58,694 bases of DNA from Planctomycetota bacterium (GTDB taxonomy: Bacteria > Planctomycetota > PLA2 > JAEUHO01), in assembly GCA_030065025.1 (NCBI GenBank), contig JASJDY010000055.1, forward strand, positions 1-58,694, given 5' to 3'. The translations under genes were made by a program, and so were the position numbers. Of this stretch, positions 37,175-57,933 are shown one piece after another (position 1 is the stretch's first letter; every line of letters begins with the position of its first letter). The notes below the pieces were generated by a model that was not told the DNA's origin, did not search any database, and was given only the letters and a program-made list of their open reading frames with translations.

Positions 37175-39022
37175 TCACAGGCCATACTCCCGGATCTTCC
37201 GATTCAAGGTGGGCCAGCTGATCCCCAGCACCGCCGCCGCCGCGCCCTTCTTGCCCCCCGTGTGCTCCAGCGCGGCCTTCACGGCGCGCTTCTCGGCCTC
37301 ACGGATGGTCATCACCTCGCTCGGTACCTGCGGGGCGTCCTCGTCGTGCACCCGGCGCTCGCGGATTTCCTGCGGCAGGTCGCTCGCCGTGATCGTGTCG
37401 CCTTCCAGCAGCACGAGTGCGCGCTCCAGCACGTTCAGCAGCTCGCGCACGTTGCCCGGCCACGGATAGGCCTGCAGCACCGCGCGCGCGTCCTCCGCGA
37501 GTCGCGGCACGCGGCGACCCAGCTGCGCCGCCAGTCGTTCGAGCGAGGCTTCAGCGATCACGATCACGTCGCCCGTGCGCTCGCGCAGCGGCGGCACGTC
37601 GAGCTCGAGGACCTGCAGGCGGTAGAAGAGGTCTTCGCGGAACGTGCCGTCCTTCACCATCTTGCGCAGGTCGCGGTTCGTCGCCGCGAGCACGCGGCAG
37701 CGCATCGGCAGCATCTCCTTGCCGCCGACGCGACGGAACGTGCCCTCGGAGAGCACGCGCAGCAGCTTCGCCTGGAGCTGCGCCGGCAGCTCGCCGACCT
37801 CGTCGAGGAAGAGCGTGCCGTCCGCGGCTTGTGCGATGCGGCCCTCGCGACGGTCGGTGGCGCCGGTGAACGCGCCCTTCTCGTGGCCGAAGAACTCACT
37901 CTCGAGCAGGCCTTCTACGAGCGCCGCGCAGTTGAGCGCCACGAAGGGGCGCGTTGCGCGTGTGCTCTCCGCGTGCAGATGCCGCGCGACGAGCTCCTTG
38001 CCGGTGCCCGTCTCGCCCGTGATCAGCACGGGCGAGTCGGCGGCGGCCGCCTTGCGGATGAGCGTGCGCACCGCTTCGACGCTCTCGTGCTCGCCGAGGA
38101 AGGGCGGCGCCTCACCGGTCGTCACGGCCTGGAGGCGGCGCACCTCCTCGCGCGCGCCGAGCAGCGCGCGGAGGTTGCGCAGGGCCAGTGCCGCCTGACG
38201 CGCCGCGGCGGCGAGCGCACGCAGGTCGCCTTCGGTGTACGCGTCGGGCGACTCGGCCTCGACGCTGACGAAGCCCAGGACGCCTTCTGCGACCTTCAGC
38301 GGCGCAGCGAGCATCGACCGGTAGCGGCTGCGCACCATCGACTTGCCGCCGGCGCCGGCCTCGGGGTCGTGGGCGTCGCGAATCAGCACCGCCTCGCCGC
38401 CCTCGAGGACGCGCTGGCGCAGTGTGCTCGAGGCGGGGGGCGTCGCGGCCTCGGGATGCGCCGCCGCGACCTCGATCGCGCCGCCCGCGCCCCGCAGACA
38501 GACGAGCGCACGTTCGGGCGCGAACGCCTCGACCATCAGTCCGAGCAGGTCACCGAGCATCGCGGGAATCTCGGCTGCGTCGGCGCACGCGACGGCACCG
38601 TCGCAGACGAACCGAAGGCGGCGTATCGCGCCCTCGCCTGCGGCCTCGACGGCGGGGTCGGCTGCGTCCGGATCGAGCGCGGCCTGCACGTCGTCGTTCG
38701 CCTGGCCTTCGACGACCGTGATGCGGTCGCTGCCGTCGCCGCTGAGGTAGCGCAGCTGCGTATCGCCGATGCGGATGACGTCGCCGTCGAACAGCCGCGC
38801 CGGACCGTCGACGCGCTCGCCGTTCAGCCACGTGCCGTTGCTGGACTTGAGGTCCTCGAGCGTGACGACGTCGCTCGCGACCTCGATGCGCGCATGGCGC
38901 CGTGAGGTCGTCTCATCGAAGAGGCGCAGGTCACAGGCCTCGTGCCGGCCGAGCAGGATGTTCGCCTCGAGGTCGAGGCGATCCGGATCGCAGCGGCCTT
39001 CGAGGAGCTCCAGCCTGCGCAT
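37175..39022 (-). CDS. Sigma54 enhancer-binding protein, FHA-GAF-AAA+-Fis HTH
   Basis: FHA LGR..SRRHA..SSNGT; GAF region; GETGTGKE, GAFTGA, FLDEVGE, FREDLFYRL, WPGNVREL; C-terminal HTH. Confidence 0.95.
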   Translation of the reverse strand: MRRLELLEGRCDPDRLDLEANILLGRHEACDLRLFDETTSRRHARIEVASDVVTLEDLKSSNGTWLNGERVDGPARLFDGDVIRIGDTQLRYLSGDGSDRITVVEGQANDDVQAALDPDAADPAVEAAGEGAIRRLRFVCDGAVACADAAEIPAMLGDLLGLMVEAFAPERALVCLRGAGGAIEVAAAHPEAATPPASSTLRQRVLEGGEAVLIRDAHDPEAGAGGKSMVRSRYRSMLAAPLKVAEGVLGFVSVEAESPDAYTEGDLRALAAAARQAALALRNLRALLGAREEVRRLQAVTTGEAPPFLGEHESVEAVRTLIRKAAAADSPVLITGETGTGKELVARHLHAESTRATRPFVALNCAALVEGLLESEFFGHEKGAFTGATDRREGRIAQAADGTLFLDEVGELPAQLQAKLLRVLSEGTFRRVGGKEMLPMRCRVLAATNRDLRKMVKDGTFREDLFYRLQVLELDVPPLRERTGDVIVIAEASLERLAAQLGRRVPRLAEDARAVLQAYPWPGNVRELLNVLERALVLLEGDTITASDLPQEIRERRVHDEDAPQVPSEVMTIREAEKRAVKAALEHTGGKKGAAAAVLGISWPTLNRKIREYGL

Positions 39023-42715: not shown

Positions 42716-45700
42716 ATGTCGAATGCCGTGTCGCCCATTGACGAGACCCGCCGCCGGGAATTCGAGCGGCAGTGGATCGAGCAGGGGCATGCGCAGATCG
42801 AAGATCATCTGCCCGAGCGCGGCGACCCGGCGTTCAGCGCGACCTTGATCGAGCTCGTGTGCATCGACATGGAGATGCGCTCCCGGCTCGGCGAGCCTCC
42901 CTCTGTGTCCGACTACGTGCGTGCGTACGACTTCGAGGGCGAGGAGCGCATGCGCCTCAAGGAAGAGGCGGCGTACCTCGCGCGCCGACGTATCCAACGC
43001 GGTAGCCGCATCGGACGGTACGTGCTGGAAGAGGTGCGTGGGCAGGGCGCGTTCGCCGCCGTATGGCGGGCGCGTGACCCCGACCTCGGTCGCGTCGTCG
43101 CCCTGAAGCGTCTGCGTCCCGCGCTCGCCACCGATGAAGAAGCCCGCGAGCGGTTCCGCCGCGAGGCGCGGAGCGCCGCGCGCCTCAGGCATCCAGCCAT
43201 CGTCACGGTGCACGAGGTCGGAGAGGACGTCTCGGGGCCGTTCCTCGTCTCGGACTTCATTCCGGGACCCACGCTCGGTGACGCGCTGAAGAAGCGTGCG
43301 TACACGCCCGACGAGGCCGCCGAGCTCGTGACGCGACTGGCCGACGCGCTGGACTACGCGCATCAGTTCGGGATCGTGCACCGGGACGTGAAGCCCTCCA
43401 ATGTCCTGCTCGACGAAGCCGGGCGGCCCCTTCTGACCGACTTCGGGTTGGCGCGACTGGGCGAGGCGGACGCCACGCTCACGCGGCAGGGGCAACTCCT
43501 GGGCACGCCCGCCTACATGTCGCCTGAGCAGGCGCGTGGCGACGTGGATGCGATCGATCGACGCAGCGACGTCTACAGTCTGGGCGTCGTGCTGTACGAG
43601 CTGCTGTGCGGGCGACCGCCGTTCCAGGGCGAGACGGCGACGTTGTTCTACGCCGTCGTGCACAAGGACGTGCCGAGACCGCGCAAGCTGCGACGCGAGA
43701 TCCCTGCGGACCTCGAGACGATCTGCCTCAAGGCCATCAGCCGCGAGCCGGATCGACGCTATCCCACCGCCGACGCCCTCGCCGACGATCTGCGGCGCTA
43801 TCTCGCGCGTCAGCCGATCGAGGCGCGGCAGGCCGGCGTGCTCGGACGCGTTGCGCTATGGGCGCGGCGCAACCCGGCAATCGCGGCGAGTCTGGTCGTC
43901 ATCGCAGTCGTCGTCGGGATCGCATTCCAGCGTGTACTGACCGAGCGAACGCGCTTCGAGGACGCGCACCGACAGTCGCAGGCCAACCTCTATCGCTCGC
44001 TCGTGCGTCAAGCAGAGGCCCAGCTGGCGTTGCCGCGCGGCGCCGGTCGCGAGGCAGCATGGACCAGCGTGCAGGATGCGACGCGGGTCGAGACCGCCGA
44101 GCGCGACATCGTGGAGTTGCGCAACCTCGCGCTGCGCTACCTGACCGCCGAAGGACCCCACTTCCGCGAGGCGGGAAGGTGGCGCTCGGAGGAGAAGATC
44201 ACGCGGTTGGCGCTCTCGCCGGACGGGACGAAGCTCGCCGAAGTCGGCCCCTCCGGCACGTACCTCCGCGATGCGGCGACGGGGAGCGTCCTACGTCACA
44301 TCGCGAAGCCGGCCCGTGCCGTCAGCTTCGCCCCGAACGGCGCGACGATCGCCGTCGCCCGTGACCGCTTCGTGCACATGCTCGATGCGACGACGCTCGC
44401 CGAGCGCGCCTCGTTTCCGTGCACGGCGCCTCCGGAGGCGATCGCGTTCGATCATGCGGGCGCGCGAGTCGCGTGCGTCTCACGGGACGGGCCGGCCGAG
44501 GTCTTCGCACTGACGACGGACGGCGCCCGTCGCGCGCTCGAGCTTCCTCACGCGGGCCACGACGTCGCCTTCGGCGCCTTCGACACGCTGACGCTCGCCT
44601 GCGTCGACGGCGGCATCCGGCAGGTCGACCTGGCGACGGCTGAGATCCGCTGGACGCAGCACTTCGAGGAGCCCGTCCGGCAGGTCGTGTCGGCGGGCCA
44701 GCGCGTCGCCGCCTTCAGCTGGGAGCGATTGCGCTTCACGATCTTCGACGCGCAGGGCGGCGGCCAGCGACATCCCGAGGGTCTCCACGAGGCATCACTG
44801 CGCACCGTCGCTTTCGGGCCGGGCGGGTACGTCCTGACGGCGTCGTCCGACGGCGTCGTCGCCGCGTACGACAAGCAGCTGGCACGCACGACGGAGCAGC
44901 GCGTCGCCGGCGCGATCCACCTGGCCGCAGTCGGCGGCGGACGCATCCTGGCGCTCGATCGGGATGGTGAGCGGACGCTGTGGCAGATGACGGTGCCCCG
45001 AGGTCGCGCGAGCTTCAGCGCCGAGCACCGGGCGAGATTCCTGCCCGGGCAGCTGCGGCTCTTCGACGGTCGCCGGATCCTCGACTGTGAGAACGGCTTG
45101 CGCGCCGTGTCGCCGACGGCGCATGCGGACAGCGCGGTGTGGGGCGTGGCGGTGGATCCCGCGGGGCGGCGTCTTGCGCGCTCGACGCACAACGGACGCA
45201 TCGAGCTGCTCGACGCGACCACGCTCGAGCGTGTCCATCTCCTTCTTCCCAAGGGACCGCTCGCGTGGACGACGGCGTTCAGCCCGGACGGACGCGTGCT
45301 CGCCTCGGGCAGCGGCAACGACGTCTTGCTCTTCGACACGGAGAGCGGGGAGATGCTGCACCGTCTCCAGGGGCACGAGCGCTTCGTCTCCGGTCTGGCG
45401 TTTCGCGGCGACGAGCTGATCTCCGCCTCCCAGGACTGGACCCTCCGGACGTGGAGCTGGCGCTCGGGTCGAGCCCTCGGCGTTCTCGCCCGCCGCACGC
45501 GCGTCTATGACCTGCACGTGGAGGGCGACACCGTGTATGCCGCCTGTCGCGACGGCTGTCTGCGCATCTGGGAGCCGGCGCACACGGATCCACATGTCGT
45601 GCGCGTCGGCGCGGAACCCCTCTGGGCGGTCGGACCTGGCCCGGGAGGGCTGATCGCGACCGGCTCCCAGGCCGGGGAGATCCACCTCCTCGCTCCGGAC

Positions 45701-45868
45701 TCCTGGGCCCCGGTCGCGGAGCTCCGGGCCAGCCCCCGCGTGCGCTCGATCGCGATCGGCCCGACAGGTCGCTATCTCGCCGCGTCCGTCTACGTGGCCG
45801 ACGGCGCCGTGTGGGACGTCGCGTACCTCCGCCGCGAGCTCGACGTCCTGGGTCTCGACTGGGACTGA
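42716..45868 (+). CDS. Ser/Thr kinase with TM segment and WD40 repeats
   Basis: GQGAFAAVW, VALK, HRDVKPSN, TDFGLA, GTPAYMSPE, DVYSLG; WD-like repeats such as FSPDGRVLASGS and LQGH..SASQDWTLRTW. Confidence 0.93.
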   Translation: MSNAVSPIDETRRREFERQWIEQGHAQIEDHLPERGDPAFSATLIELVCIDMEMRSRLGEPPSVSDYVRAYDFEGEERMRLKEEAAYLARRRIQRGSRIGRYVLEEVRGQGAFAAVWRARDPDLGRVVALKRLRPALATDEEARERFRREARSAARLRHPAIVTVHEVGEDVSGPFLVSDFIPGPTLGDALKKRAYTPDEAAELVTRLADALDYAHQFGIVHRDVKPSNVLLDEAGRPLLTDFGLARLGEADATLTRQGQLLGTPAYMSPEQARGDVDAIDRRSDVYSLGVVLYELLCGRPPFQGETATLFYAVVHKDVPRPRKLRREIPADLETICLKAISREPDRRYPTADALADDLRRYLARQPIEARQAGVLGRVALWARRNPAIAASLVVIAVVVGIAFQRVLTERTRFEDAHRQSQANLYRSLVRQAEAQLALPRGAGREAAWTSVQDATRVETAERDIVELRNLALRYLTAEGPHFREAGRWRSEEKITRLALSPDGTKLAEVGPSGTYLRDAATGSVLRHIAKPARAVSFAPNGATIAVARDRFVHMLDATTLAERASFPCTAPPEAIAFDHAGARVACVSRDGPAEVFALTTDGARRALELPHAGHDVAFGAFDTLTLACVDGGIRQVDLATAEIRWTQHFEEPVRQVVSAGQRVAAFSWERLRFTIFDAQGGGQRHPEGLHEASLRTVAFGPGGYVLTASSDGVVAAYDKQLARTTEQRVAGAIHLAAVGGGRILALDRDGERTLWQMTVPRGRASFSAEHRARFLPGQLRLFDGRRILDCENGLRAVSPTAHADSAVWGVAVDPAGRRLARSTHNGRIELLDATTLERVHLLLPKGPLAWTTAFSPDGRVLASGSGNDVLLFDTESGEMLHRLQGHERFVSGLAFRGDELISASQDWTLRTWSWRSGRALGVLARRTRVYDLHVEGDTVYAACRDGCLRIWEPAHTDPHVVRVGAEPLWAVGPGPGGLIATGSQAGEIHLLAPDSWAPVAELRASPRVRSIAIGPTGRYLAASVYVADGAVWDVAYLRRELDVLGLDWD

Positions 45869-46711: not shown

Positions 46712-49700
46712 CTACGGCAGCCCCCACGGCAGCCAAGCCGCCCAGTAGTAGGGATGCGCCCACTTGGCCTGGCTGCGGACGTGGAGCTGCGCTTTGCGCA
46801 ACGCTGCCGCGGGCGCGAGGCCCTTTCCGTCCTGCGGGCTCCATAGCTCGTAGAACTTCACCATGAGCGCGCGCGTCGCCTCGTCGTCAACCCGCCAGAG
46901 TGATCCGATCACGCGTTTGGATCCGGCCATCTGGAAGCCCTGGACCAGACCGATGACGCCTTCGCCGGACTCCGCCTTGCCGAGCGCCGTCTGACAGGCG
47001 GACAGCACGACCAGCTCGACACCGTCGAGGTCGAGGTGAGACGCCTCGAGCGCGGTGAGGATGCCGTCATCGCCATGTCCGCCCGCGCGGGGGTTCGCGC
47101 CGGCCAGCGCCAGACCCGCCAGCAGCATGGGGTCGTGCCCCTGCGCCAGCTTGCGCTCCATGTTCGCGCCGAGCCACGTCCGCTCTTTCCGCCGGCGCGT
47201 CAGTCCGCGCAGGAGGTCGTCGCGGACGAAGCCGTGGGTGGCGAGGTGGAGTACGCGCTTGCCGGCCAGCTGCGAACGAAGGCGGCTCTCCGTCGCCTCC
47301 TTGCCGGAGAGGACCTCCGAGCCGCTGCCGATGCGGTCGCGGATCGCCTCCGTCTCAGCCTTGGTGCCCGCGAGGTACGCGAAGCGCCGTCCCGGAGGGG
47401 GGCGATCCACGAACGTCCGCCCCGTCTGCGCCGTGTCCTTGCCGACGGCCGCCTCGTCGTAGTTCACGCCGCCGAGCAGGAGTGCGCCCGTTCCCGCCGC
47501 TGGCGCATCGGGCCACGGCACGAGATCCTGCGCCATCGAGACTGCCGAGAGCTCGTACTCGTCGATCACGAGACGGCCAGGCGCGGCGCCTGGGAGCGCC
47601 CCAAACGGAACGGCCGCCAGGGCCGCGTCGGGACATACGTGGATCCGGTTGACGGACTTGCCGAGGCGTGCCGCGATCGGATCGAAGATCAGCGCGCGCA
47701 GCGTCTTGCCTGCGTCGCGCCACCCGTCGTCGTCGCTCTCGGGGGCGCTCTCGGCGAACTCGGCGGCAGCCTCTTCGATGGCCTCGGCGTCGCCGAGCTC
47801 CACGCGCACCGGCTGGCCGCGGCGGCCGATGATCCACGCAAGGTAGGTGTCGTCCGAGCGCAGGTACTCGAGCAGCACGGCGTCGGCTTCCAGCCGTGCC
47901 TGGATGTCCGCAAGCGACAGCTGCAGGCGCTCGAGCTTCTGACGCATGGGCGCAAGGTCGCGCTGCAGCGCGAGCGCAAGCTGCTCCCGCTGCGAGGCTG
48001 CGTCGGCGTAGGCCTTCTGCCAGGCAGCCTTCTTCCGCTTGTCCCGTAGCGAGGGCATGGCGTTCGCCAGCTTCGCGAGTCGGCGCTCCGCCTGCTTGAG
48101 GGCGCCGATGCGCGCGCGCGCTTCCTCGTCGGCACCACGAGCGAGTCGTCGCTCCCCCGACTCCGCTCGCGCGATCAGGCCCTTGAAGCGCAGCACCTCG
48201 GCGACACCGGAGCGCTCGATGCGAGGCGCGACCTCGAGCCACGAGGCGAGGTACGTGCGCAAGGACCGCAGCAGTCCGTAGCGCGTCGATGCCTGGAGGC
48301 CGGTCAGTCCCTGCCGGACCTGCTTCTCCGCCACGGAGAGGCAGCGCGTCAGGAGAGAGGCTGCCTGATCGTGCTGACCCTGCTTCAGCAGCACGCGGCC
48401 GAGGTCGTGGAGGCTCATGGCCACGCTGGGGTGCTCCGCGCCGAGGGACTCCTGGCGGATCGTGAGCGCGCGCTCATAGAGCGGACGAGCCTCCGCGTAC
48501 GCGCCCCGCGCCATGTGCAGATCCGCCAGGTTGCGGAGGTCGGCTGCGACCTCGGGGTGTTTCGGTCCGAAGACCTTCTCGTCGATCGCGATGGCTCGTT
48601 CGTAGAGGCGGCGGGCTTCGGCGTACGCGCCGAGGGTGACGAGAAGAGCAGCGAGGTTGTTCAGGCTCATGGCCACGCTGGGGTGCTCGGGGCCAAGAGC
48701 CTTCGTCCGGATCCGGAGCGCCTGCTGGTGAAGCGCCAGGGCCTGCTCGTGATCGCCGACGAAGACGAGCAGCTCGGCCAGGTTGTTCATCGCGGTCGCG
48801 ACTTCGGGATGCTCCTCGCCGTTGGCCTTCCTTCGGATACCAAGCGCTCGCTCGTAGAGCGGTCGGGCTTCCTCGTAGGCACCCTGCGCGACGAGCACCG
48901 CGGCGACGTTGTTCAGACCCGTGGCCACGTCGGGGTGCTCCTTCCCCAGTGCCTTTTCCCAGATCGCCAGGGCACGCTCGCACAGGGGGCGCGCACGTTC
49001 GTACGCGCCCAGCGTCTCCAGCAGCAGCCCGAGGTTGCTGAGGCTCATGGCCACCTCGGTGTGCTCGGGTCCGAGCGCCTTCTCGCGGATCCTGAGCGCG
49101 CGCTCGTAGAGCGGGTGTGCCCCCTCGTAGTCGCCCAGCGCGTCGAGTGCCAGGGCCAGGTTGTCGAGGCACGTCGCGACGTTGCGGTGCTCGCGTCCGA
49201 AGGCGATCTCGAAGATCCGCAGCGCACGCTCGTAGAGCGGGCGAGCCTTCTCGTAGGCTCCCGCGGCGTAGTGCAGCATCCCGAGGTTGTTGAGGGCCGT
49301 CCCGACGGAAGGATGGTCCTTGCCGTGCGCGCGCTCCCAGATGGTGAGGGCGCGTTCGTAGCGCGGCCGCGCCTCGGCGTAGGCGCCCATCGCCTCGAAC
49401 AGCGCGGCGAGGTTGTTGAGCACCCGCGCCACGTTCGGGTCATCAGGACCGTACGTCTTCTCCCAGATCGCGAGCGCGCGCTCGTAGAGCGGACGCGCTT
49501 CCTCGTACTCGCCCAGCGTGCGCAGCAGCGCAGCGAGGTTGTTGAGGCCTGTGCCCACGTCCTCGTGCTCCGGGCCGCTCGCCTTCTCCCAGATCCTCAG
49601 CGCACGTTCGTACAGTGGGCGGGCCTGCTTGTACTCGCCGAGCGCCTCCAGCATGGCCGCCAGGTTGTTGAGACTCGTGGCCACGTCGGGGTGGTCCGGT

Positions 49701-49945
49701 CCGAGTGCGCGCTCGCGCAGCTCGAGCACCTGGCGCGCGACGGGTGCCGCCTCGCGGTACTTGCCCTCGCGGTAGAGCGCCAGCACGCGCTGGTTCCACG
49801 CGCGCGCCATGGAGAGGGCCATGCGCCGCTCGGTCTCCGTCATCTCCCTGGCCGGCTTCTTGGGCTCGTCCTTCGGCTTGTCGTCGGACGCAGCGGGTCC
49901 TGCCATGAGCAGCAGGCAGATGCAGAGTCCCACCAGCGTGCGCAT
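46712..49945 (-). CDS. Secreted TPR-repeat and CHAT (caspase-like) protease
   Basis: Signal peptide; about a dozen 42-aa GPEHPxVAxSLNNLA repeats; LHLATHG and LVVLSACQT dyad; HPYYWAA. Confidence 0.93.
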   Translation of the reverse strand: MRTLVGLCICLLLMAGPAASDDKPKDEPKKPAREMTETERRMALSMARAWNQRVLALYREGKYREAAPVARQVLELRERALGPDHPDVATSLNNLAAMLEALGEYKQARPLYERALRIWEKASGPEHEDVGTGLNNLAALLRTLGEYEEARPLYERALAIWEKTYGPDDPNVARVLNNLAALFEAMGAYAEARPRYERALTIWERAHGKDHPSVGTALNNLGMLHYAAGAYEKARPLYERALRIFEIAFGREHRNVATCLDNLALALDALGDYEGAHPLYERALRIREKALGPEHTEVAMSLSNLGLLLETLGAYERARPLCERALAIWEKALGKEHPDVATGLNNVAAVLVAQGAYEEARPLYERALGIRRKANGEEHPEVATAMNNLAELLVFVGDHEQALALHQQALRIRTKALGPEHPSVAMSLNNLAALLVTLGAYAEARRLYERAIAIDEKVFGPKHPEVAADLRNLADLHMARGAYAEARPLYERALTIRQESLGAEHPSVAMSLHDLGRVLLKQGQHDQAASLLTRCLSVAEKQVRQGLTGLQASTRYGLLRSLRTYLASWLEVAPRIERSGVAEVLRFKGLIARAESGERRLARGADEEARARIGALKQAERRLAKLANAMPSLRDKRKKAAWQKAYADAASQREQLALALQRDLAPMRQKLERLQLSLADIQARLEADAVLLEYLRSDDTYLAWIIGRRGQPVRVELGDAEAIEEAAAEFAESAPESDDDGWRDAGKTLRALIFDPIAARLGKSVNRIHVCPDAALAAVPFGALPGAAPGRLVIDEYELSAVSMAQDLVPWPDAPAAGTGALLLGGVNYDEAAVGKDTAQTGRTFVDRPPPGRRFAYLAGTKAETEAIRDRIGSGSEVLSGKEATESRLRSQLAGKRVLHLATHGFVRDDLLRGLTRRRKERTWLGANMERKLAQGHDPMLLAGLALAGANPRAGGHGDDGILTALEASHLDLDGVELVVLSACQTALGKAESGEGVIGLVQGFQMAGSKRVIGSLWRVDDEATRALMVKFYELWSPQDGKGLAPAAALRKAQLHVRSQAKWAHPYYWAAWLPWGLP

Positions 49946-49964: not shown

Positions 49965-50636
49965 CTAGAGCTGAGGGAGGATATCGCGCTCCGCGGTCTC
50001 GACGTCCTCGGGGAAGTCGATCTCGGTCCACGGGCGGCCGGCGACCTCGACGTACTGGGCGCCGTGCTCGGCTACGAACGCGTCGAGCGCCGCCTCGTAG
50101 TCGCCCTCCGGGTCGGCCGCGTCGATGCTGGTTCGCAGCGCCGGAAGGGAAGCCGCGTCGAGCTTGAAGAAGCCCACGCCCTCGCCGACGAGATCGAAGC
50201 CGGGGAGCTTGCCGCGGCGGATGGCGCGCACGATGCCGCCCTTCACGCCGATCATCATCTCCTCGTCGCCCGGATCGGTGCGCGGGTCGATCGCGAAGCC
50301 GCGCTCGAGCTGCGTCACGTCGGCGAGGATCGTCGGGTCGTAGAGCACGTCCGCGTCCATCACGACGACGTCCTCGTCCAGACCCTCGAGGCCCGCGGAG
50401 AGCGATAGCAGGCTGCCGCGGCGGAACTCGGGGTTGTGGCGGTGGGCGGTGCCGGGGGCATGCTCGAGCAGCTCCTCGGCCATGAAGCCCGTCACGATGC
50501 GCACGGGCACGTCGAGCGCCGCGAGGTTCTCGAGGTGACGCGAGAGCAACGTGCGACCGCCGATCTCGAGCAGGGCCTTCGGCCGGTCGTCCTTGAGGCG
50601 GCGGCCGACGCCCGCAGCGAGGATCACCGCCCTCAC
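49965..50636 (-). CDS. LicC/PntC-like cytidylyltransferase
   Basis: AVILAAGVGRRL..PKALL, MDADV, WTEIDFPED; last gene of the phosphonate operon. Confidence 0.88.
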   Translation of the reverse strand: MRAVILAAGVGRRLKDDRPKALLEIGGRTLLSRHLENLAALDVPVRIVTGFMAEELLEHAPGTAHRHNPEFRRGSLLSLSAGLEGLDEDVVVMDADVLYDPTILADVTQLERGFAIDPRTDPGDEEMMIGVKGGIVRAIRRGKLPGFDLVGEGVGFFKLDAASLPALRTSIDAADPEGDYEAALDAFVAEHGAQYVEVAGRPWTEIDFPEDVETAERDILPQL

Positions 50637-51691
50637 GAGCGGACTCCGGCCAGAGCATCGGCGAGCCCGTGCAGGCGCTCGTCCGGGATGATGCCCATGT
50701 TGCAGACGCGCCAGGCCGAGGACTCCAGGTCACCCTGGCCTGCGTAGATGACGTAGCCCTTCGAGCGCAGGTGCGCGTGCAGCTTCTCGTACGGCACGCC
50801 CTCGGGCAGGCGCGCGCACGTGATCGTGTTGCTGTGCAGCTCCGGCGGCAGGAGCAGCTCCATGCCCCGATCGGCGAGGATGCCGCGGATGATGCCGGCC
50901 GCCCGCGCGTAGCGGGCCTGGCGCCCCTCGACCGTCTCCTCGATCAGCTCGTCGAGCGCGGCCTCGAAGGCGGCCGTCACCTGGATGGCGGGCGTGAACG
51001 GCGTGCCGCCCGCGCGCTGCTTGGCCAGCTGGTTGCCCATGTCGAAGTAGACCGACCGCGTGCGCAGCTCGGCGCCCTTCTTCACGAGTACGAACGAGAC
51101 GCCCGGCAGGCCCTGGATGCACTTGTTTGCCGTCGAGCACACCGCCGCCGGCTGGATCGCGTCGAAGTCGAACTCCTCGCCGGCGAGGCCGCTCACGCTG
51201 TCGACGAGGAGGCGCCGGCCCGTGCGGTGGGCGATCTCGGCGATGGCCTGCACGTCGTTGAGCAGTCCCACGGTCGTCTCGTGGTGGACGCACGCGATCG
51301 TGTCGAGGCCGTCCTCGAGCGCGTCTTCGATCACCTGCGGGTCGGGGCGATCGGTCCACGGCACCTGCACGACCTTGCAGCGAATGCCGTGCGCCTCGGC
51401 CATTTTGCGCAGGCGATCGCCGTAGACGCCGTTGTCGATCACGAGCACGCCGTCGCCTGCGGCGGAGCAGACCATCATCTCCATGCCCGCCGTGCCCGAG
51501 CCCGAGACCAGCGCGGCCTCGTAGTCCGCCTCGACGCCGAAGGCCTGGACGAGCTTGGCGCGCACGCGCGTCTGCATCTCGAGGTACTCGGGCTCGCGAT
51601 GACACTGGTCCTCGCACTCGGCGAGGGCGCGGCGGACGTTCTCCGAGACGTTGATCGGTCCCGGGTTGAGCAGCGTGAAGGCCTGGCCCAT
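50633..51691 (-). CDS. 2-aminoethylphosphonate transaminase (PhnW/AepZ family)
   Basis: LLNPGP, SGSGTAGME, NGVYG, VHHETTVGLLN, DSVS, ANKCIQGLPG, PFTP, VIYAGQG. Confidence 0.88.
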   Translation of the reverse strand: MGQAFTLLNPGPINVSENVRRALAECEDQCHREPEYLEMQTRVRAKLVQAFGVEADYEAALVSGSGTAGMEMMVCSAAGDGVLVIDNGVYGDRLRKMAEAHGIRCKVVQVPWTDRPDPQVIEDALEDGLDTIACVHHETTVGLLNDVQAIAEIAHRTGRRLLVDSVSGLAGEEFDFDAIQPAAVCSTANKCIQGLPGVSFVLVKKGAELRTRSVYFDMGNQLAKQRAGGTPFTPAIQVTAAFEAALDELIEETVEGRQARYARAAGIIRGILADRGMELLLPPELHSNTITCARLPEGVPYEKLHAHLRSKGYVIYAGQGDLESSAWRVCNMGIIPDERLHGLADALAGVRS

Positions 51692-51696
51692 GCGGT

Positions 51697-52254
51697 CTAA
51701 CCCTGGCAGGCCTGGGCGAAGCGCGCGGTGATCTCGGGGGGCGTGTGCGTGACGCGGCCGATGCCCTTCACGTTGCCCTTCTCGACCTTCACGAGGAGCA
51801 TCGCCGGACCCTCGCGCTCGAGGAACGCCGGCAGCGCGGCCTCGAGCTGGTCGGCCGCGACGCGCTCGGCGTAGGCGTAGCCCGAGGCCTTGGCGATCTG
51901 CTCGAGGTGGATCTTGTCGCTGATCGTGGCCTGGCCGCCGGTCGAGCCGTGCGACTCGTTGTCGAGCACGACGTGGTGCAGGTTCTTGAGGTCCAGCGCG
52001 CCGGCGCTGGCGAGCACGCCGGCGCCCATGAGCACGTTCCCGTCGCCGTCGAGGCACAGCACCTTCTTGTCGGGCTGCGTCACGGCGACGCCGATGGCGA
52101 TCGAGAGGCCGAGGCCCATCGAGCCGATCATGTAGAAGTTCTGTCCGCGGTCTTCGGCCGTGAACGCCTCGCGCCCGATCATGCCGTTGCACACGACGGT
52201 GGGGCGGTCGTCCAGCGCCTTCATGACGATCGCTGCGGCTTCAGCTCGACGCAT
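51697..52254 (-). CDS. Phosphonopyruvate decarboxylase beta subunit (ComE-like)
   Basis: NFYMIGSMG, TPP-binding DGDGNVLM...LDNESHGSTGGQ. Confidence 0.88.
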   Translation of the reverse strand: MRRAEAAAIVMKALDDRPTVVCNGMIGREAFTAEDRGQNFYMIGSMGLGLSIAIGVAVTQPDKKVLCLDGDGNVLMGAGVLASAGALDLKNLHHVVLDNESHGSTGGQATISDKIHLEQIAKASGYAYAERVAADQLEAALPAFLEREGPAMLLVKVEKGNVKGIGRVTHTPPEITARFAQACQG

Positions 52255-52759
52255 CGAGGATCCCCTTCGCGACGATCAAGGCGCCCGGCACCTTGCGCTC
52301 GTCGATCTCCTTGGTGATGGCGGCGACGTCCTCGGCGATCGTGTCGGGATTCAGGATCCGCCAGGGCAGGCCCTTCATCTCGCCGAGCGTGATGTTGTCG
52401 AAGTAGCTCGTCATGATCTCGCCCATGACGAGGTGCTCGGGCGCGTCCTGGCCGTCCTTGCCGCGCCACGACACGACGATCAGCGTGGGGATCTCGTAGA
52501 TCACGTCCAGGCTGACGATGGCGTTGAGCGCGACGCCCAGGCCGCTGTTCTGCATGAACACGGCCGGCTTCTTGCCCGCCATGAACGCGCCGGCGGCCAT
52601 GCCCAGCGCGGAGTCCTCGCGGACCGCGCTGATGTAGCCCCACTCCGGCTCTTCGTCGAAGCGGCGGATCACGCCCTTGAGCAGGGAGCACGGCACGCCT
52701 GCGTAGAAGTCGTAGCCGTTGGCCTGCATGGCCTCCAGGAACTCGGTCGTCTGCGGCAT
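52241..52759 (-). CDS. Phosphonopyruvate decarboxylase alpha subunit (ComD-like)
   Basis: GVPCSLLK, REDSALGMAAG, MQNSGLG, SWRG..DAPEH..MG. Confidence 0.88.
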   Translation of the reverse strand: MPQTTEFLEAMQANGYDFYAGVPCSLLKGVIRRFDEEPEWGYISAVREDSALGMAAGAFMAGKKPAVFMQNSGLGVALNAIVSLDVIYEIPTLIVVSWRGKDGQDAPEHLVMGEIMTSYFDNITLGEMKGLPWRILNPDTIAEDVAAITKEIDERKVPGALIVAKGILDASS

Positions 52760-52766
52760 CCCTCGC

Positions 52767-54389
52767 CTACCTCATCTGCGCCCAGGCGCGCTGGTAGTCC
52801 TCGAACGTGTCGATCTCCATCCAACCCTTGTAGGTGTCGATCGTGTTCACGGTCAGGCCCTTGTCGACGAGGGCCTGCAGGAGATCGGTGAGCGCGGCCG
52901 TGGCCAGGCTCTCGGCCTCGTGGACCGGGCCCTCGTCCAGGCCCTCGTACAGCTCGCGTAGCCCCTCGGCGCCCTTCTTCGAGAGCATCAGCATGCCGAT
53001 CCACTCGCCGTTCGGGTCTTCGATCCGCTGGCCGATGCGCTCGAGCGTGTCGCTGCGCGTGCCCTTGAGGAAGCGCTGCCCCGAGCCGGTCTCGCCGTTC
53101 ACGGTGTGGACGAGGTCGCGGTTCGGACGACCCTCGAGGTTCGAGCGGTCCACGACAAGCACGACGTCGCCCTCGGACTGCAGGAGGCGCTCGACCATCT
53201 CCTGGTCGAAGAGGATGTCGCCGTAGAGCACGAGCGTGCGCCGGTCGAGCTCGCCGGCGGCCTCCATGAGCGAGGCCACCTCGCCCTGCGAGGAGTCCGC
53301 GCTGTAGGTCTTGAGGTTCGGGAGGTCGACCGCCTCCTTCTTGTAGCCCACCACGACGGAGATGTCCTTGATGCCGGCCGCGTTGAGCGCGTCGACCTGA
53401 TGGCCGAGGACGGGCTTGCCCTTCACGTCGAGCATCGCCTTCGGGCGGTCCTGCGTGAGCTCGCCGAGCTCGGGGCTCGCGCCCGCCGCGAGGATCACCG
53501 CGCCGACGCGCTGGCCGCCCGACGGCATGAAGGTCTTCTCGTCGGCCTTCATCTGCGGCACGCCGATGAGCTCGTACACGTCGTTCTTCGGCACGACGAG
53601 GTCGTCGACCGACGCGCACGTCTGCTCGCGCGCGATCGTGGCTAGCGCCTCGCGCTGCGCCTTGATGCCGGAGCGCAGGACGTGGTTCGCGTAGATGACG
53701 ATCTGGTAGCCGCCGTCGTAGAGGGTCTGCGCCGACGTCGTCTTGTAGATCGTCGGCACGCAGACGAGCGGCGTGTCGCGGTCCCACTGCTCCGCGAAGC
53801 CGAGCACCTCGTCGGGCTCCGTGGACTTGCTGTGCACGAGCACGAAGTCCGCGCCGGCGTCGGCGTAGGCCCGGCCGCGCATCAGCGCCTCCTCCATGCC
53901 CCACCCGGCAATGAGCGCCTCGGTGCGGGCGATGACGAGGAAGTCGTCGCTCGTGCGCGTGTCGAGAACCGCCTTCACCTTGCCGGCGTGCTCCTCGACG
54001 GGGGCCAGCTCGCGCTTCACGCCCGCATAGAACGAGCAGCGCTTCGGGAAGACGTTGTCCTCGATGCAGACCGCCGAGATGCCTTCGCTCTCATAGGCCT
54101 TCACCATGTGGATGACGTTGATGGCGTTGCCGTAGCCGTTGTCGCAGTCGGCGATGACGGGGATGTCGATGGACTTCACCATCCAGGACGCCGCGCCGAG
54201 TTGCTCGGCCATCGTGAGGATGTTGGCGTCCGGGACGCAGTGTGCCGCCGAGATCTCGAAGCCCGAGGCCCAGACCGCGTCGAAGCCGGCCTCCTCGACG
54301 AGCTTCGCCGTCATCCCGTTGTGGGCTCCGGCCACCAGCAGCGGCCCCGGCTGAGACAGCCGCTCCCTCAGGCGTCGTTTCGCGTCCAT
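52767..54389 (-). CDS. pepM: PEP mutase-like enzyme fused to a C-terminal cytidylyltransferase
   Basis: GAHNG, WASGFEISA, PDAN, ADCDNGYGN, EDNVFPKRCS, IARTEALIAG, VHSK, VPT; then VILAAG..DRPKAML..YGDILF..WMEIDTFEDY. Confidence 0.85.
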   Translation of the reverse strand: MDAKRRLRERLSQPGPLLVAGAHNGMTAKLVEEAGFDAVWASGFEISAAHCVPDANILTMAEQLGAASWMVKSIDIPVIADCDNGYGNAINVIHMVKAYESEGISAVCIEDNVFPKRCSFYAGVKRELAPVEEHAGKVKAVLDTRTSDDFLVIARTEALIAGWGMEEALMRGRAYADAGADFVLVHSKSTEPDEVLGFAEQWDRDTPLVCVPTIYKTTSAQTLYDGGYQIVIYANHVLRSGIKAQREALATIAREQTCASVDDLVVPKNDVYELIGVPQMKADEKTFMPSGGQRVGAVILAAGASPELGELTQDRPKAMLDVKGKPVLGHQVDALNAAGIKDISVVVGYKKEAVDLPNLKTYSADSSQGEVASLMEAAGELDRRTLVLYGDILFDQEMVERLLQSEGDVVLVVDRSNLEGRPNRDLVHTVNGETGSGQRFLKGTRSDTLERIGQRIEDPNGEWIGMLMLSKKGAEGLRELYEGLDEGPVHEAESLATAALTDLLQALVDKGLTVNTIDTYKGWMEIDTFEDYQRAWAQMR

Positions 54390-54493
54390 GTGCACGGCCC
54401 CCCGCTTGGAAATGCCAAGCGCAAGAGTGTAGGTCCGGCCGGGCGAACGGGAGAGGGGCGCGCGACGGCGAGGGGATCGGGCCGCCGGGGGCC

Positions 54494-54534
54494 AAAAATG
54501 GAATAAGGCGCGCCCCGGTGAAGGGGCGCGCCTT
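54494..54534 (-). terminator. Intrinsic terminator
   Basis: 12-bp perfect stem AAGGCGCGCCCC/GGGGCGCGCCTT followed on the minus strand by ATTCCATTTTT. Confidence 0.75.
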
Positions 54535-54691
54535 GCAGAGACCGGTCCGGTGGGCGCGGGGCGCCGGGAGGGAGGGTAGGGAGGGAGGAGGGATGGCGCA
54601 CACGCGCACCCGTCCGGTCCGGTCCCGATCTGGTCAAAGAGCCGCGGAGTGGGGCTTCCTCCTTGCGAAGGGTGCCTCCCTCAGCGATGCA
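54494..54691 (-). ncRNA. Candidate sigma54-dependent sRNA with CU-rich loop
   Basis: Bounded by a sigma54 promoter and a terminator; hairpins; 29-nt CU loop; no credible ORF. Confidence 0.55.
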
Positions 54692-54701
54692 CCCAACGTA
54701 C

Positions 54702-54717
54702 AGCGAAATGCGTGCCA
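54702..54717 (-). promoter_or_regulatory. Sigma54 -24/-12 promoter
   Basis: TGGCAC-GCATT-TCGCT (GG-N10-GC). Confidence 0.75.
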
Positions 54718-55007
54718 CGTCGGGCCGACCAAGGCCCCGCATCAAATGGGCCTCTCCGGGGCATCGATGGGGCCTGGGTGCGAGAAAGTGCAACACCGGC
54801 TGTACTCATCGGGCGAATTCCGCACGCCGGTTTGACATTCCACAATCCGCGAGCGAGCCCGCACGGTGGGGTCTCGGGACCCCATTCCCGATCCCGGCGG
54901 GGTGTTCGCGTCAGGGGCTGGAGTCCGCCCTGCCTCATGCCGGACTCCGTATACTCGGGCCAGCCCCAGGAAGCGCGCGGCCCCCTGCCGCGCCCAGGGA
55001 GGCCGTC

Positions 55008-56612
55008 ATGCGGATATCCGTCCTCGCCCTCGTTGCAGCCGCTCTGCTCCTCGCGCCCGCCGGCACGGTGCGCGCCGAGGACGTGGCCGACGCCGACCGC
55101 CATACCGCCAAGGTGCGCCACCTGCTACGCCGCGCGACGTTCGGGCCGCGTCCCGGCGACGTCGAGGCGGTCAAGACGATCGGCATCGAGGCGTGGCTCG
55201 ACCGGCAGCTCGCGCCGCAGACGATCCCCGATCCGGAGGTCGAGAAGCGCCTCGAGGGCTATGCGACGCTCAAGCTGACGCCGGAGGAGTACGTCGCCCG
55301 ACTGCGCGGCGCGAGCATGAACCGCGACCAGGGTCCGCCCAAGAAGGGCGAGGATCGCTTTGCCAAGGCGCGCCGCACCCAGGCCGAGCTCAACCGCCTG
55401 CGCAACCAGGCCGCCCGCGAGGTGCCGCGCGCCATCCTCATGGAGGCCGTCTACAGCGAGCGTCAGCTCGAGCAGGTGATGGCCGAGTTCTGGCGGAACC
55501 ACTTCAACGTCGACATCACGAAGGACGACGTCCGCTACTACATCCCCGACTACGAGCGCGTCATCCAGCGGGGCATGTTCGGCAAGTTCGAAGACCTGCT
55601 GATGAGCACGGCCAAGCACCCGGCCATGCTCTTCTACCTCGACAACCACGTCTCGCAGGCGCCGATGGCGCGCGCCGAGAGGGTGGCCCAGGGGCGCGAG
55701 GACGAGAGCCGCACGGGTGGCCTCAACGAGAACTACGCGCGCGAGCTGATGGAGCTGCACACGGTCGGTGCCGACAACGGCTACGACCAGGACGACGTCA
55801 TCCAGCTCTCGCTCGTGCTCACAGGCTGGTCGATCCAGAACGGCAAGTTCCACTTCCGCGAGAACTACCACGCTCGCGGCCGCAAGCGCGTCATGCGCAA
55901 GACCTTCAAGCCCGCCGGGGTCGAGGAGGGCGAGGCCGTCGTCCGCTTCCTCGCGCGCCACAAGCTCACGCGACAGTACGTCGTCGGCAAGATGGCGCGC
56001 TACCTCCAGGCCGACGAGCCGAGCGAGAAGCTCATCGCCGACGTGTGCAAGGTCTGGGCGAAGACCAAGGGCGACCTCCGGGCCGTCACGAAGGCGATCC
56101 TCATGCACGACGACTTCTACGCGAAGTCGAGCGTGCTCACGAAGGCGAAGACCCCCTTCGAGTACGTCGTGAGCGCCATGCGCGTCACCGGTGCCGACGT
56201 CCGGGATATGGGCGGCGTCATGCAGCGCCTGGGCGACATGGGTCAGCCCGTGCTGCGCCAGGAGGACCCGACCGGCTACAGCGACGCCGCCGTCGACTGG
56301 ATGGACACGGGCGTCCTCGCCGTGCGCTGGCAGTTCGCCTTCGACCTGCTGAACAACCGCATCCCCGGCGTGAAGGTCGACGGGAGCCCGCTCTTCGAGC
56401 ACCTGCGGCAGAAGCCGGAGGTGTGGGAGTACCTGATGCAGGACGCGCTCTTCGCGGGCGAGCGTCCCGGCTCCCTGACCATGGCGCCCTTCCGGCGCCG
56501 CGTGAACGACGTCCGTCGCAACTACCGCAAGATGCGCATCGCGGAGCTGCGCAAGGAATACAGCATCCTGGCCACGCTGCTGCTCGGCTCGCCCGAGTTC
56601 CAGCGCCAGTAG
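55008..56612 (+). CDS. DUF1800 family protein
   Basis: HLLRRATFG, FWRNHF, PAMLFYLDN, NENYARELMELHTVG, LTGW, KTPFE, SPEFQ; GGAGG RBS. Confidence 0.93.
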   Translation: MRISVLALVAAALLLAPAGTVRAEDVADADRHTAKVRHLLRRATFGPRPGDVEAVKTIGIEAWLDRQLAPQTIPDPEVEKRLEGYATLKLTPEEYVARLRGASMNRDQGPPKKGEDRFAKARRTQAELNRLRNQAAREVPRAILMEAVYSERQLEQVMAEFWRNHFNVDITKDDVRYYIPDYERVIQRGMFGKFEDLLMSTAKHPAMLFYLDNHVSQAPMARAERVAQGREDESRTGGLNENYARELMELHTVGADNGYDQDDVIQLSLVLTGWSIQNGKFHFRENYHARGRKRVMRKTFKPAGVEEGEAVVRFLARHKLTRQYVVGKMARYLQADEPSEKLIADVCKVWAKTKGDLRAVTKAILMHDDFYAKSSVLTKAKTPFEYVVSAMRVTGADVRDMGGVMQRLGDMGQPVLRQEDPTGYSDAAVDWMDTGVLAVRWQFAFDLLNNRIPGVKVDGSPLFEHLRQKPEVWEYLMQDALFAGERPGSLTMAPFRRRVNDVRRNYRKMRIAELRKEYSILATLLLGSPEFQRQ

Positions 56613-56634: not shown

Positions 56635-57933
56635 ATGTCCAACACCCGTCGTGAAGTCCTGGCAGCCGGCGCCGCCGGCCTTGCCGGCCTGACCGCCTAC
56701 GGCTCGCTCGCGAAGCACGCGCACGCCGCTCCCGAGAAGGAGATCGCAGTCCGCCCCGCGGTCGTCGTGATCTACCTGCGCGGTGGGCAGGACGCGCTCA
56801 ACGCGCTCGTGCCGTACACCGAGGGCCGCTACTACGACATGCGCCCGAACATCGCGGTGCCGACGCCCGACAAGGAGAACGGCTGCATCGATCTCGACGG
56901 CACGTTCGGCCTGCATCCTGCGCTCACCGGCTTCAAGACGCTGTGGGACAAGAAGCTGCTCGCGCCGATCGTGAACGCCGGCGTGAACTCGCCTTCGCGC
57001 AGCCACTTCCAGATGCAGGACTTCATGGAGCAGGGGCGCATGCGCAACTCGCCCGTCCGCTCCGGGTGGCTCAACCGCTATCTCACGGCGACGTCCGCCG
57101 GCGAGCACGAGGCGGACTTCCGTGCGCTGGCGCTGCAGAGCCGCCTGCCGCGCTCGATGCGCGGCAAGTTCCCGGCGCTGGCCGTGGCGCCGAGCCGCGC
57201 GCGCGGCCGCACGCGCGACAAGGACAGCGACGTGCTCGAGCTGTTCGACAAGCTCTACAAGAAGCCGCCCTCCATGGAGGGCGCGGGCATGAAGTCCGAG
57301 CGTCCCGACGCCGACGAGCTCACCCAGAACGGTCGCGCGACGATCGACGCGCTCCGGAAGCTCGAGGAGATCCTGACGCAGAAGCCCGCCGGCAAGGAGG
57401 TCCGCTACCCCGCCACGGCCGGCGGCATGGGCCGCCAGCTGAAGATGGCTGCGCGCCTGCTGAAGTCCGGCCAGGGCGTCCAGGCCATCGCCATCGACCG
57501 CAACGGCTGGGACCACCACATCAACCAAGGCAGTGTCAACGAGCAGGACATCTTCTATCGGATGCTGCGCGAGGTCGGCACGGCCGTCTCGACCTTCTAC
57601 GAAGACATCCAGTTCATGAAGAACATGGTCACCACGGTGATCATGACCGAGTTCGGCCGCACGAACCGTGAGAACGGCAACAACGGCACCGACCACGGCC
57701 ACGGCGGCCTGATGTGGTTGGTCGGCGGCAAGGTCAACGGCGGCAAGGTGTACGGCGACTGGACCGGCCTGGCCCCGGGGCAGACCTACCAGAACCGCGA
57801 CCTGCTCGTCACGACCGACTGGCGCGACGTGCTGAGCGAGGTCCTGTACGACCACCTGCGGCTGCACCCGTCGAAGCAGGTCTTCGGCAAGTTCACCCCG
57901 CGAGAGCAAAAGCTCGGGTTGTTCAAGACCTAG
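56635..57933 (+). CDS. DUF1501 family protein with Tat signal
   Basis: TRREVL Tat motif; LRGGQDALN, GLHPAL, RSHF, GWDHH, TEFGR..ENGNNGTDHG. Confidence 0.93.
   Translation: MSNTRREVLAAGAAGLAGLTAYGSLAKHAHAAPEKEIAVRPAVVVIYLRGGQDALNALVPYTEGRYYDMRPNIAVPTPDKENGCIDLDGTFGLHPALTGFKTLWDKKLLAPIVNAGVNSPSRSHFQMQDFMEQGRMRNSPVRSGWLNRYLTATSAGEHEADFRALALQSRLPRSMRGKFPALAVAPSRARGRTRDKDSDVLELFDKLYKKPPSMEGAGMKSERPDADELTQNGRATIDALRKLEEILTQKPAGKEVRYPATAGGMGRQLKMAARLLKSGQGVQAIAIDRNGWDHHINQGSVNEQDIFYRMLREVGTAVSTFYEDIQFMKNMVTTVIMTEFGRTNRENGNNGTDHGHGGLMWLVGGKVNGGKVYGDWTGLAPGQTYQNRDLLVTTDWRDVLSEVLYDHLRLHPSKQVFGKFTPREQKLGLFKT

Follow-up and report, generated by a model that had tools for sequence, protein, structure and literature searches.

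Two kinds of described bacterial small RNAs (sRNAs) come closest to the RNA gene analyzed here: those that expose C-rich loops resembling the anti-Shine-Dalgarno (anti-SD) sequence, and those transcribed from sigma-54 promoters. The gene lies on the minus strand of contig JASJDY010000055.1 of a Planctomycetota bacterium (assembly GCA_030065025.1; the whole stretch analyzed, 58,694 nucleotides (nt), is referred to below as the window), in a 620-bp gap between a plus-strand gene for a DUF1800 protein and the minus-strand gene pepM, which encodes a phosphoenolpyruvate (PEP) mutase fused to a nucleotidyltransferase. Among the sRNAs of the second kind, CrcZ and Pxr are transcribed from sigma-54 promoters that require an enhancer-binding protein. 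The same combination of a -24/-12 promoter and an enhancer-binding protein is reported for GlmY/GlmZ (PMC3045617) and for Qrr1 of the Qrr1-5 set (PMC10162802). The first kind includes the cuckoo RNAs of Alphaproteobacteria (Rhizobiales and Rhodobacterales), namely Rfam family RF02344 with CcsR1-4/RSs0680, SmelC397/NfeR1 and the alpha-r14 family. In this family, 2-4 adjacent hairpins have compensatory stems, and only the loop motif CCUCCUCCC, an anti-SD look-alike, is conserved (PMC4615179). NfeR1 represses translation of ntrB via three anti-SD seeds, and its promoter is described as being of the sigma-70 type, with no sigma-54 signature (PMC10746234). The 6C sRNA (B11) of high-G+C Gram-positive bacteria is reported to bind several mRNAs through C-rich loops without a chaperone (PMC6486639).

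The RNA described here lies outside every Rfam family and joins these known kinds of sRNA in a new phylum. Like the cuckoo RNAs, it contains CCUCCUCCC in its loop, its covarying stems hold the loop open, and its modules are tandem duplicates. It differs from them in its phylum, Planctomycetota; in having one locus per genome, compared with up to 9 copies of cuckoo RNAs; in loops of 20-48 nt with 2-10 CCUCC units in place of one motif of ~9 nt; and in possessing, in addition, a 5' hairpin and the conserved GCUCUUU motif. With respect to the cuckoo architecture of several adjacent hairpins that each carry CCUCCUCCC, the picture is mixed: the RNA of the window has one C-rich module, whose loop contains this motif, and relatives have 2-3 modules, but the exact 9-mer is not present in all of their loops. 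Furthermore, unlike the sigma-70-type promoter of NfeR1, the promoter is of the sigma-54 type. The cuckoo covariance model did not match the RNA (cmscan of positions 53900-55300, E <= 10). With the 6C sRNA, the RNA shares a high-G+C host (69.8%) and a C-rich loop, and no Hfq was found in the incomplete host genome; however, sequence, structure and taxon are unrelated, and 6C loops are short C runs rather than CCUCC repeats. To our knowledge, the 6C sRNA is not sigma-54 dependent, and Actinobacteria lack sigma-54. The -24/-12 promoter is common to this RNA, whose host encodes RpoN and about 17 activators, and to GlmY/GlmZ, Qrr1-5, CrcZ and Pxr, but the genes for those sRNAs are usually located beside an activator gene, whereas none is adjacent here. 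Rfam shows no match to any of them in sequence or structure, and the long CCUCC loops, the putative effector part, do not resemble theirs.

Comparison of 20 homologous loci makes it very probable that this region is a functional, independently transcribed RNA gene of the sigma-54 type. The best reading, to which we assign a probability of about 0.5, is that of a sigma-54-dependent, trans-acting sRNA analogous to the cuckoo and 6C RNAs.

A conserved sigma-54-type promoter

The candidate promoter, TGGCAC-N5-TCGCT, had been noted in a first-pass annotation made from the DNA letters of the window without database searches, and it withstood comparison with the relatives. In the window, the GG of the -24 element (54716-54715) and the GC of the -12 element (54704-54703) have the GG-N10-GC spacing, and this frame is retained upstream of the RNA core in all 20 homologous loci. 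The broader pattern [TC]GG[CA]AC-N5-[TG][TC]GC was detected by pattern search in 14 of 14 loci and in four of six loci added later; in the remaining two, the promoter was recognized by eye (TGGCAC-N5-GTGCG in G013 and TGGAAC-N5-GTGCT in G022). Across the 20 loci, the promoter is kept although its spacer and flanking sequences diverge and it stands at different distances from the core. In the host genome, the loose motif turns up 432 times among 7.79 million positions, a rate of 5.5e-5 for each position and of 0.012 for a 220-nt window. The significance of the promoter derives from the presence of the motif at all 20 homologous loci and not from a single match; this conservation is not due to chance, even with the relatedness of the genomes allowed for. 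In sigma-54 promoters, transcription usually starts 12 nt from the C of the -12 GC element, and the predicted start given in Table 1 follows from this spacing.

Upstream of the promoter, a conserved block, GAGAGGCCCATTTGATGCGGGGCCTTGGTC, is kept in the seven closest genomes and, in part, across the broader alignment; its role may be that of an activator site, of an element resembling those bound by integration host factor (IHF) or of a promoter-proximal element. In several genera (G006, G008, G043 and G017), inverted repeats similar to TGTCC-N5-9-GGACA are located ~95-110 nt before the -24 element, the position expected for an activator site; because the copy in the window is degenerate, they are no more than a hint of one. 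RpoN is encoded in the window itself (801-1277, minus strand; PF04552, 8.2e-61) by the only rpoN detected in the genome, which also yielded 17 strong matches to Sigma54_activat (PF00158, E <= 1.4e-48). The nearest activator, a protein with FHA, GAF, sigma-54 AAA+ and HTH_8 domains (37175-39022, minus strand), is encoded ~15.7 kb from the RNA, and neither an enhancer-binding protein gene nor rpoN lies directly beside the RNA gene.

Table 1. Coordinates of the RNA gene, its parts and its neighbors in the window
Feature	Position	Strand	Basis or remark
Sigma-54-type promoter TGGCAC-N5-TCGCT, TGGCACGCATTTCGCT	54717-54702	-	sequence read and conservation
Predicted transcription start	54691	-	usual sigma-54 spacing
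Conserved upstream block GAGAGGCCCATTTGATGCGGGGCCTTGGTC	54727..54756 (~-65 to -36 from predicted start)	-	alignments
5' hairpin, G+C-rich, sequence variable among relatives	54643..54686	-	minimum free energy (MFE) and centroid folds
Single-stranded motif GCUCUUU	54636..54642	-	conservation
Module 1	54538..54626	-	MFE fold and covariation
29-nt unpaired loop AUCCCUCCUCCCUCCCUACCCUCCCUCCC, five overlapping CCUCC units	54594-54566	-	MFE fold
Terminator-like hairpin AAGGCGCGCCCC-UUCACC-GGGGCGCGCCUU, tail AUUCCAUUUUUGG	54492..54534 (hairpin 54534-54505)	-	terminator scan and fold
Degenerate module 2 remnant (…GCGCGCCCCUCUCCCGUUCGCCCGGCCGG…), after terminator	54432..54491	-	comparison with intact modules of G001, G003, G005 and G006
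TACACT, candidate pepM -10 box	54431-54426	-	sequence read, comparison
pepM (PEP mutase and nucleotidyltransferase fusion)	52767..54389, ATG 54389	-	Pfam PF13714 4.5e-53, PF12804 4.1e-16
TATACT, candidate DUF1800 -10 box	54950-54955	+	~53 nt before DUF1800 ATG
DUF1800 protein with signal peptide, divergent neighbor	55008..56612, ATG 55008	+	Pfam PF08811 4.8e-116
DUF1501 gene, after DUF1800	56635-57933	+	PF07394

Structure and covariation of the RNA

All RNA coordinates are read on the minus strand. The MFE fold of positions 54700-54490 has an energy of -101.7 kcal/mol (z = -3.59), with none of 200 shuffles equally stable, and reproduces the long stem with a 29-nt open loop and the 12-bp terminal hairpin that had been proposed in the first-pass annotation. 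The 5' hairpin proposed at the same time was not supported: the strings GGGTGC and GCACCC are present, but they are unpaired with each other in the MFE and centroid folds, GGGTGC begins upstream of the predicted start, and the accompanying GGAGG motifs are not conserved. Both folds contain another 5' hairpin (Table 1). When 14 homologues were folded, every one was predicted to form an equivalent hairpin, and RNAalifold detected some compensatory changes among its pairs. The single-stranded GCUCUUU motif next to it is among the best-conserved parts of the RNA, being invariant across the seven closest homologues and found in most other loci too, and may mark a site of processing or offer a further binding site.

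The main structural unit, module 1, consists of a long irregular stem (about 54626-54595 with 54565-54538). Its outer helix is formed by GGGACCGG (54626-54619) and CCGGUCUC (54545-54538) and, together with an inner G+C-rich pairing that includes GGCGC-CCC-GCGCC (54565-54553), encloses the C-rich tract. For the inner architecture, RNAalifold applied to the MAFFT alignment favors two inner hairpins, that is, a three-way junction, and single-sequence MFE folds mostly show one long stem. The C-rich tract is unpaired either way, and it is unpaired in the MFE folds of the window sequence and of all 14 homologues folded singly.

These helices are supported by covariation. In an alignment of 24 modules, 93.3% of the cells form standard pairs, compared with 32-55% when the partners are slid by 1-3 columns; compensatory changes occur in 10 of the 13 modelled pairs, and the covariation score was reached by none of 500 shuffles. 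The outer helix alone reaches 96.7% pairing, with compensatory changes in 7 of 8 pairs. Covariation was also computed on a 15-sequence version; the alignments were fitted to the covariance model, which favors structure somewhat. In the alignment of the closest genomes, the promoter motif is invariant, the loop is near-invariant and the terminal hairpin shows compensatory changes. Coding function was considered and rejected: homologues contain insertions and deletions in the loop and stems that are not multiples of three, such as a 5-nt deletion in G006, so the RNA is not coding, as had been suspected from the lack of a credible open reading frame (ORF).

The terminal hairpin is the sole terminator-like site in positions 54300-55100, where a terminator scan called exactly one site, with 12 pairs, 10 of them G-C, and the tail ATTCCATTTT; shuffled sequences average 0.3 sites. 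Its conservation is divided. The hairpin itself is maintained by compensatory changes (for example, one pair is CG in three sequences and GC in three), but the U-tract at this place is good only in the host genome (G000), G002 and G004; in most other relatives, it comes after module 2 or 3, and in many of them the last module is succeeded by a stem that carries a U-tract.

Distribution and tandem modules

The host genome is a metagenome-assembled genome (MAG) of 3.9 Mb, 89% complete, with 69.8% G+C. By DNA search, the region was located in each of the five additional genomes that belong to the genus and in a second genus; three additional matches (G010, G016 and G024) were short and probably spurious. 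Because plain DNA search finds only the closest relatives, covariance models were needed to reach further. The first model, R1, built on the core, detected the RNA in 11 of 29 genomes of the family and 14 of 40 genomes of the order at E <= 0.01. With the second, R2, built from the R1 matches, 20 of the 40 genomes representing the class proved to have it, at a single locus each. These belong to family f1 (20 of 29 genomes and 12 of 16 genera), whereas R2 found the RNA in none of the 11 genomes of the sister family f2. A pattern scan of public collections returned 18 stretches, of which six were already-known loci and the remaining 12 had matched by chance, in coding DNA or in Actinobacteria; an analogous metagenome scan returned two, one identical to the G001 locus and one a chance match. 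The homologue sample accordingly consists of 20 genomes, the public-collection scans having given no further loci. As far as searched, the RNA appears to be confined to one family of uncultured Planctomycetota and looks like a narrow and rare RNA family. The region was also considered as a repeat or mobile element; this reading was rejected because the region is single-copy in the host genome and occupies one locus in each relative.

Within this family, the number of modules varies. A second module is present in most relatives and a third in genus g16 (G020 and G042), each displaying a C-rich tract; the module-1 model matches the second modules of four loci (L039, L036, L047 and L049), and the modules are therefore tandem duplicates. 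In most relatives, the RNA is ~270-450 nt long, with two or three C-rich modules. In the window and its nearest relatives, G002 and G004, the terminator comes straight after module 1, and module 2 persists only as a degenerate remnant. The length of ~200 nt suggested in the first-pass annotation thus holds for the window, where the predicted RNA is ~198 nt (54691 to ~54494), but not for most relatives; as the comparison indicates, the ~200-nt single-module form is a derived, shortened version.

A search of Rfam was consistent with the initial impression of an undescribed RNA: there was no match at E <= 10 for the RNA region, cmscan of 53900-55300 returned only two unrelated weak matches, and nothing reached the gathering score across the whole window. 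In the literature, a word search of open-access full text without supplements found no description of a regulatory sRNA from Planctomycetota, nor of such an RNA or a global SD-titrating system in this phylum. If real, the RNA would constitute the first well-defined sRNA family for Planctomycetota, characterized by its promoter class, its structure and a plausible effector motif, and would extend both sigma-54-controlled sRNAs and Hfq-free anti-SD-loop sRNAs to a distant phylum, where the two are combined.

C-rich loops and their complementarity to ribosome-binding sites

The C-rich loop is conserved in composition along with the promoter. A total of 35 C-rich tracts, 18-48 nt long, were identified, with 19 of the 20 genomes contributing; CCUCC is present in all 35 and at least two CCUCC units in 34, while tract length and register vary freely between genera. 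Loops with so many units are unusually long among anti-SD and C-rich-loop sRNAs.

The loop is complementary to the GGAGG core of the SD sites used in the host genome. Gene starts were taken as the first ATG of 2696 long ORFs with high G+C at the third codon position (GC3), an approximate set; before these starts, GGAG/GAGG shows a 5- to 7-fold peak at -9 to -14, and the enriched hexamers are CGGAGG, GGAGGA, AGGAGG and GGGAGG. The host anti-SD sequence is not directly readable because the 3' end of the 16S rRNA is not assembled in the MAG, where all 15 matches to GGATCACCTCC are in coding-like sequence.

The complement of the loop has five or more G3 runs with 1-nt spacers, which, together with the attachment of the element to the DUF1800-pepM intergenic region, invites the suggestion that it acts as DNA: a plus-strand GGGAGGG G-quadruplex or a minus-strand i-motif would affect the DUF1800 and pepM promoters, and the RNA-like features would be incidental. 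Among the 35 tracts of the relatives, 24 could form a quadruplex on the opposite strand, but the other 11 cannot form a canonical one, and all 35 keep CCUCC. The flanking helices covary, and their G.U pairs are confined to the minus strand: G.U cells outnumber A.C cells 24 to 4, in agreement with the minus strand being the folded RNA. Given in addition that the conserved promoter and terminators are strand-specific and that the DUF1800 -10 box is ~230 bp off and points away from the element, an action at the DNA level is highly improbable.

Possible modes of action

Under the favored reading of a trans-acting sRNA, sigma-54 RNA polymerase would wait at the -24/-12 element and fire only after some enhancer-binding protein is activated. 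The transcript would fold into the 5' hairpin, the single-stranded GCUCUUU and one to three tandem modules, in each of which the covarying G+C-rich stems would keep open a tract of 20-48 nt of CCCUCC/CCUCC units, and transcription would stop at the intrinsic terminator. The exposed CCUCC units would pair with GGAGG-type SD regions or other G-rich stretches of mRNAs from other loci, and this pairing would block binding of the 30S subunit and/or alter mRNA stability, in an Hfq-free manner. Neither Hfq nor CsrA was found in the genome, although, the MAG being incomplete, their absence is not proven; this fits the chaperone-independent mode of action through C-rich loops that is reported for the 6C sRNA (PMC6486639). 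For base-pairing with SD sites or G-rich mRNA stretches as the chief way in which the RNA acts, we put the chances at about even. The sparing of leaderless mRNAs, which the first-pass annotation had added to this scenario, is pure conjecture.

Several observations weigh against this reading. The RNA gene is known here from sequence alone, and it is from sequence that we infer its transcription, its start and end points, its sigma-54 dependence, its action in trans and its targets. The -12 element is TCGC rather than TTGC (one mismatch to TGGCAC-N5-TTGCW), and the genome contains 18 occurrences of the strict promoter pattern, so that a lone match means little without conservation. Every genome in the comparison is an incomplete MAG, and the 20 loci may amount to a dozen independent lineages. 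The U-tract is imperfect in the window and weak or absent after the last module in several relatives. The tracts of G018 and G022 are degenerate and CCUGCC-rich, with few or no CCUCC units. With 20-48 nt and 2-10 CCUCC units, the loops greatly exceed the length of a normal seed. When duplexes were predicted between the loop and the 5' regions of the 2696 approximate gene starts, strong energies resulted for very many G-rich regions. Finally, the RNA is strongly associated with pepM, being present in 16 of the 17 pepM-positive genomes of the family.

Target prediction with the loop, which had been proposed in the first-pass annotation as a check, thus produced many G-rich matches and no specific target. 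In the duplex prediction, no target stands out among the 2696 approximate 5' regions, and pepM ranks ~828th. A scan for 9-mer complements found at least 284 sites, G-rich, and among the matches listed there is no obviously meaningful target. Both predictions were set aside as uninformative.

This lack of specificity and the architecture of the loops are at least as suggestive of a multivalent decoy, in which the CCCUCC units would titrate a factor that recognizes C-rich or anti-SD-like RNA, in the manner of CsrB/RsmY or CrcZ. The partner would be, for example, a protein of the KH or cold-shock type, a factor handling the 3' end of the 16S rRNA, or Rho. Repeated short motifs in free register are the pattern of sequestering RNAs such as CsrB and CrcZ, and CrcZ is also under sigma-54 control. 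Here, likewise, a short motif occurs 2-10 times per tract in 1-3 tandem modules, tract length and register are variable, the promoter is of the sigma-54 type and the genome encodes Rho (two PF07497 matches). Against this, no candidate binding protein was identified, CsrA and Hfq were not found in the genome (and the motif is not theirs anyway), and the repeat unit is the exact complement of the SD core of this genome, which base-pairing explains more simply. We regard the decoy as a less likely, minority alternative to a trans-acting, base-pairing sRNA.

A bolder reading casts the RNA as a multivalent mimic of the 16S anti-SD tail that is triggered through sigma-54 and, with 5-20 CCUCC units per molecule, serves as a global sponge. 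This is speculative and somewhat less probable still. If true, the SD regions of many mRNAs at a time, or an anti-SD-recognizing factor, would be soaked up on a signal that an enhancer-binding protein senses, and the translation program would move toward mRNAs with weak SD sites or none. We know of no dedicated global SD-titrating switch that has been described as a system. The long multi-unit loops thus pose the question of chosen targets versus global titration of ribosome-binding sites.

Relationship of the RNA to pepM

The genomic association with pepM also suits an action in cis. The RNA is directly upstream of pepM and in the same orientation in 15 of the 20 genomes (in one further case, G015, the contig ends here), and it could be a leader or attenuator of the pepM operon: a sigma-54 transcript would be stopped at the hairpins, or by Rho acting at a Rho utilization (rut) site, and regulated read-through would add sigma-54-dependent expression to that from the promoter of pepM itself. 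Rho prefers unpaired C-rich, G-poor tracts. The tracts of this RNA are of that kind, Rho is encoded in the genome, and the U-tracts of some relatives are weak or absent. The association in 16 of 17 pepM-positive genomes points the same way, and it may have its origin in a functional tie as well as in common descent.

The two genes, however, are separable in both directions. In four genomes (G008, G012, G013 and G024), the RNA and its promoter occur without any PEP mutase (no PF13714 match); these genomes are 86-93% and 80% complete, and three of them are in <=10 contigs. In G008, the gene downstream of the RNA encodes a PAP2_C protein instead of pepM. Conversely, G009 (L065) has DUF1800 and pepM adjacent without the RNA: the gap of ~370 nt between them contains -10-like boxes but neither a -24/-12 motif nor a C-rich tract, and, as read from this gap, G009 has lost the RNA cleanly. 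The four RNA-only genomes, together with the pepM-only G009, imply that the RNA is not an obligatory pepM leader.

Moreover, pepM appears to have its own promoter. The -10 box TACACT, already pointed out in the first-pass annotation, is kept in G002 and G004 and is replaced at the equivalent place in other genera by TATAGT, TATCAT, TATATT, TATCGT or TATCTT, so that a -10-like box separates the RNA element from pepM in all lineages inspected; a scan with the sigma-70 consensus called no full promoter at the pepM -10 box. In many relatives, good terminators composed of a stem and a U-tract come after the last module, and the 5' region of pepM is not a notable pairing partner of the loop. With these observations set against the shared orientation and the C-rich tracts, we find a cis-acting attenuator improbable, and a trans-acting sRNA remains the preferred reading.

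In G012 and G024, both pepM and DUF1800 are missing at the RNA locus. A conserved 26-codon ORF follows the RNA in these genomes (L037, ~1657-1740, plus strand; L044, minus strand); its peptide is hydrophobic, signal-peptide-like and ends in IGGC, and a conserved GGCCAGTATGGCCGT block is found next to it.

Gene neighborhood and additional observations

The steadiest neighbor is DUF1800, which adjoins the RNA gene divergently in 18 of the 20 genomes. The TATACT upstream of it is probably its -10 box; on the minus strand, it corresponds to the GAGTATAC block, which is kept in most of the 14 aligned loci. The steady position beside the phosphonate operon and the DUF1800/DUF1501 pair is a starting point for the search for the signal and the regulon.

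The downstream neighbor of the RNA, pepM, opens a 2-aminoethylphosphonate-type operon and lies outside the RNA itself. The operon (49965-54389, minus strand) resembles a 2-aminoethylphosphonate pathway with activation steps. It includes a split phosphonopyruvate-decarboxylase-like pair (TPP_enzyme_N, 52241-52759, and TPP_enzyme_C, 51697-52254), a class-V aminotransferase and a second NTP_transf_3 gene (49965-50636).

The host genome contains a second candidate sRNA, on contig C130 at ~15330-15500 of the plus strand (~630-800 of L071). The closest approach to an Rfam family is a sub-threshold match to Pxr, with 20.6 bits against a gathering score of 80. A GAGCUC/GAGCUC stem displays the loop CCCUCCCCUCCCUCCCUCCCCCCC and is followed by a strong hairpin with the tail UUUGCUUUUUU; partial DNA homologues are present in G004, G002, G005 and G019.

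Two large signaling-type genes are located near the phosphonate operon, one encoding a Ser/Thr protein kinase with WD40 repeats (42716-45868, plus strand) and the other a TPR-CHAT protein (46712-49945, minus strand).

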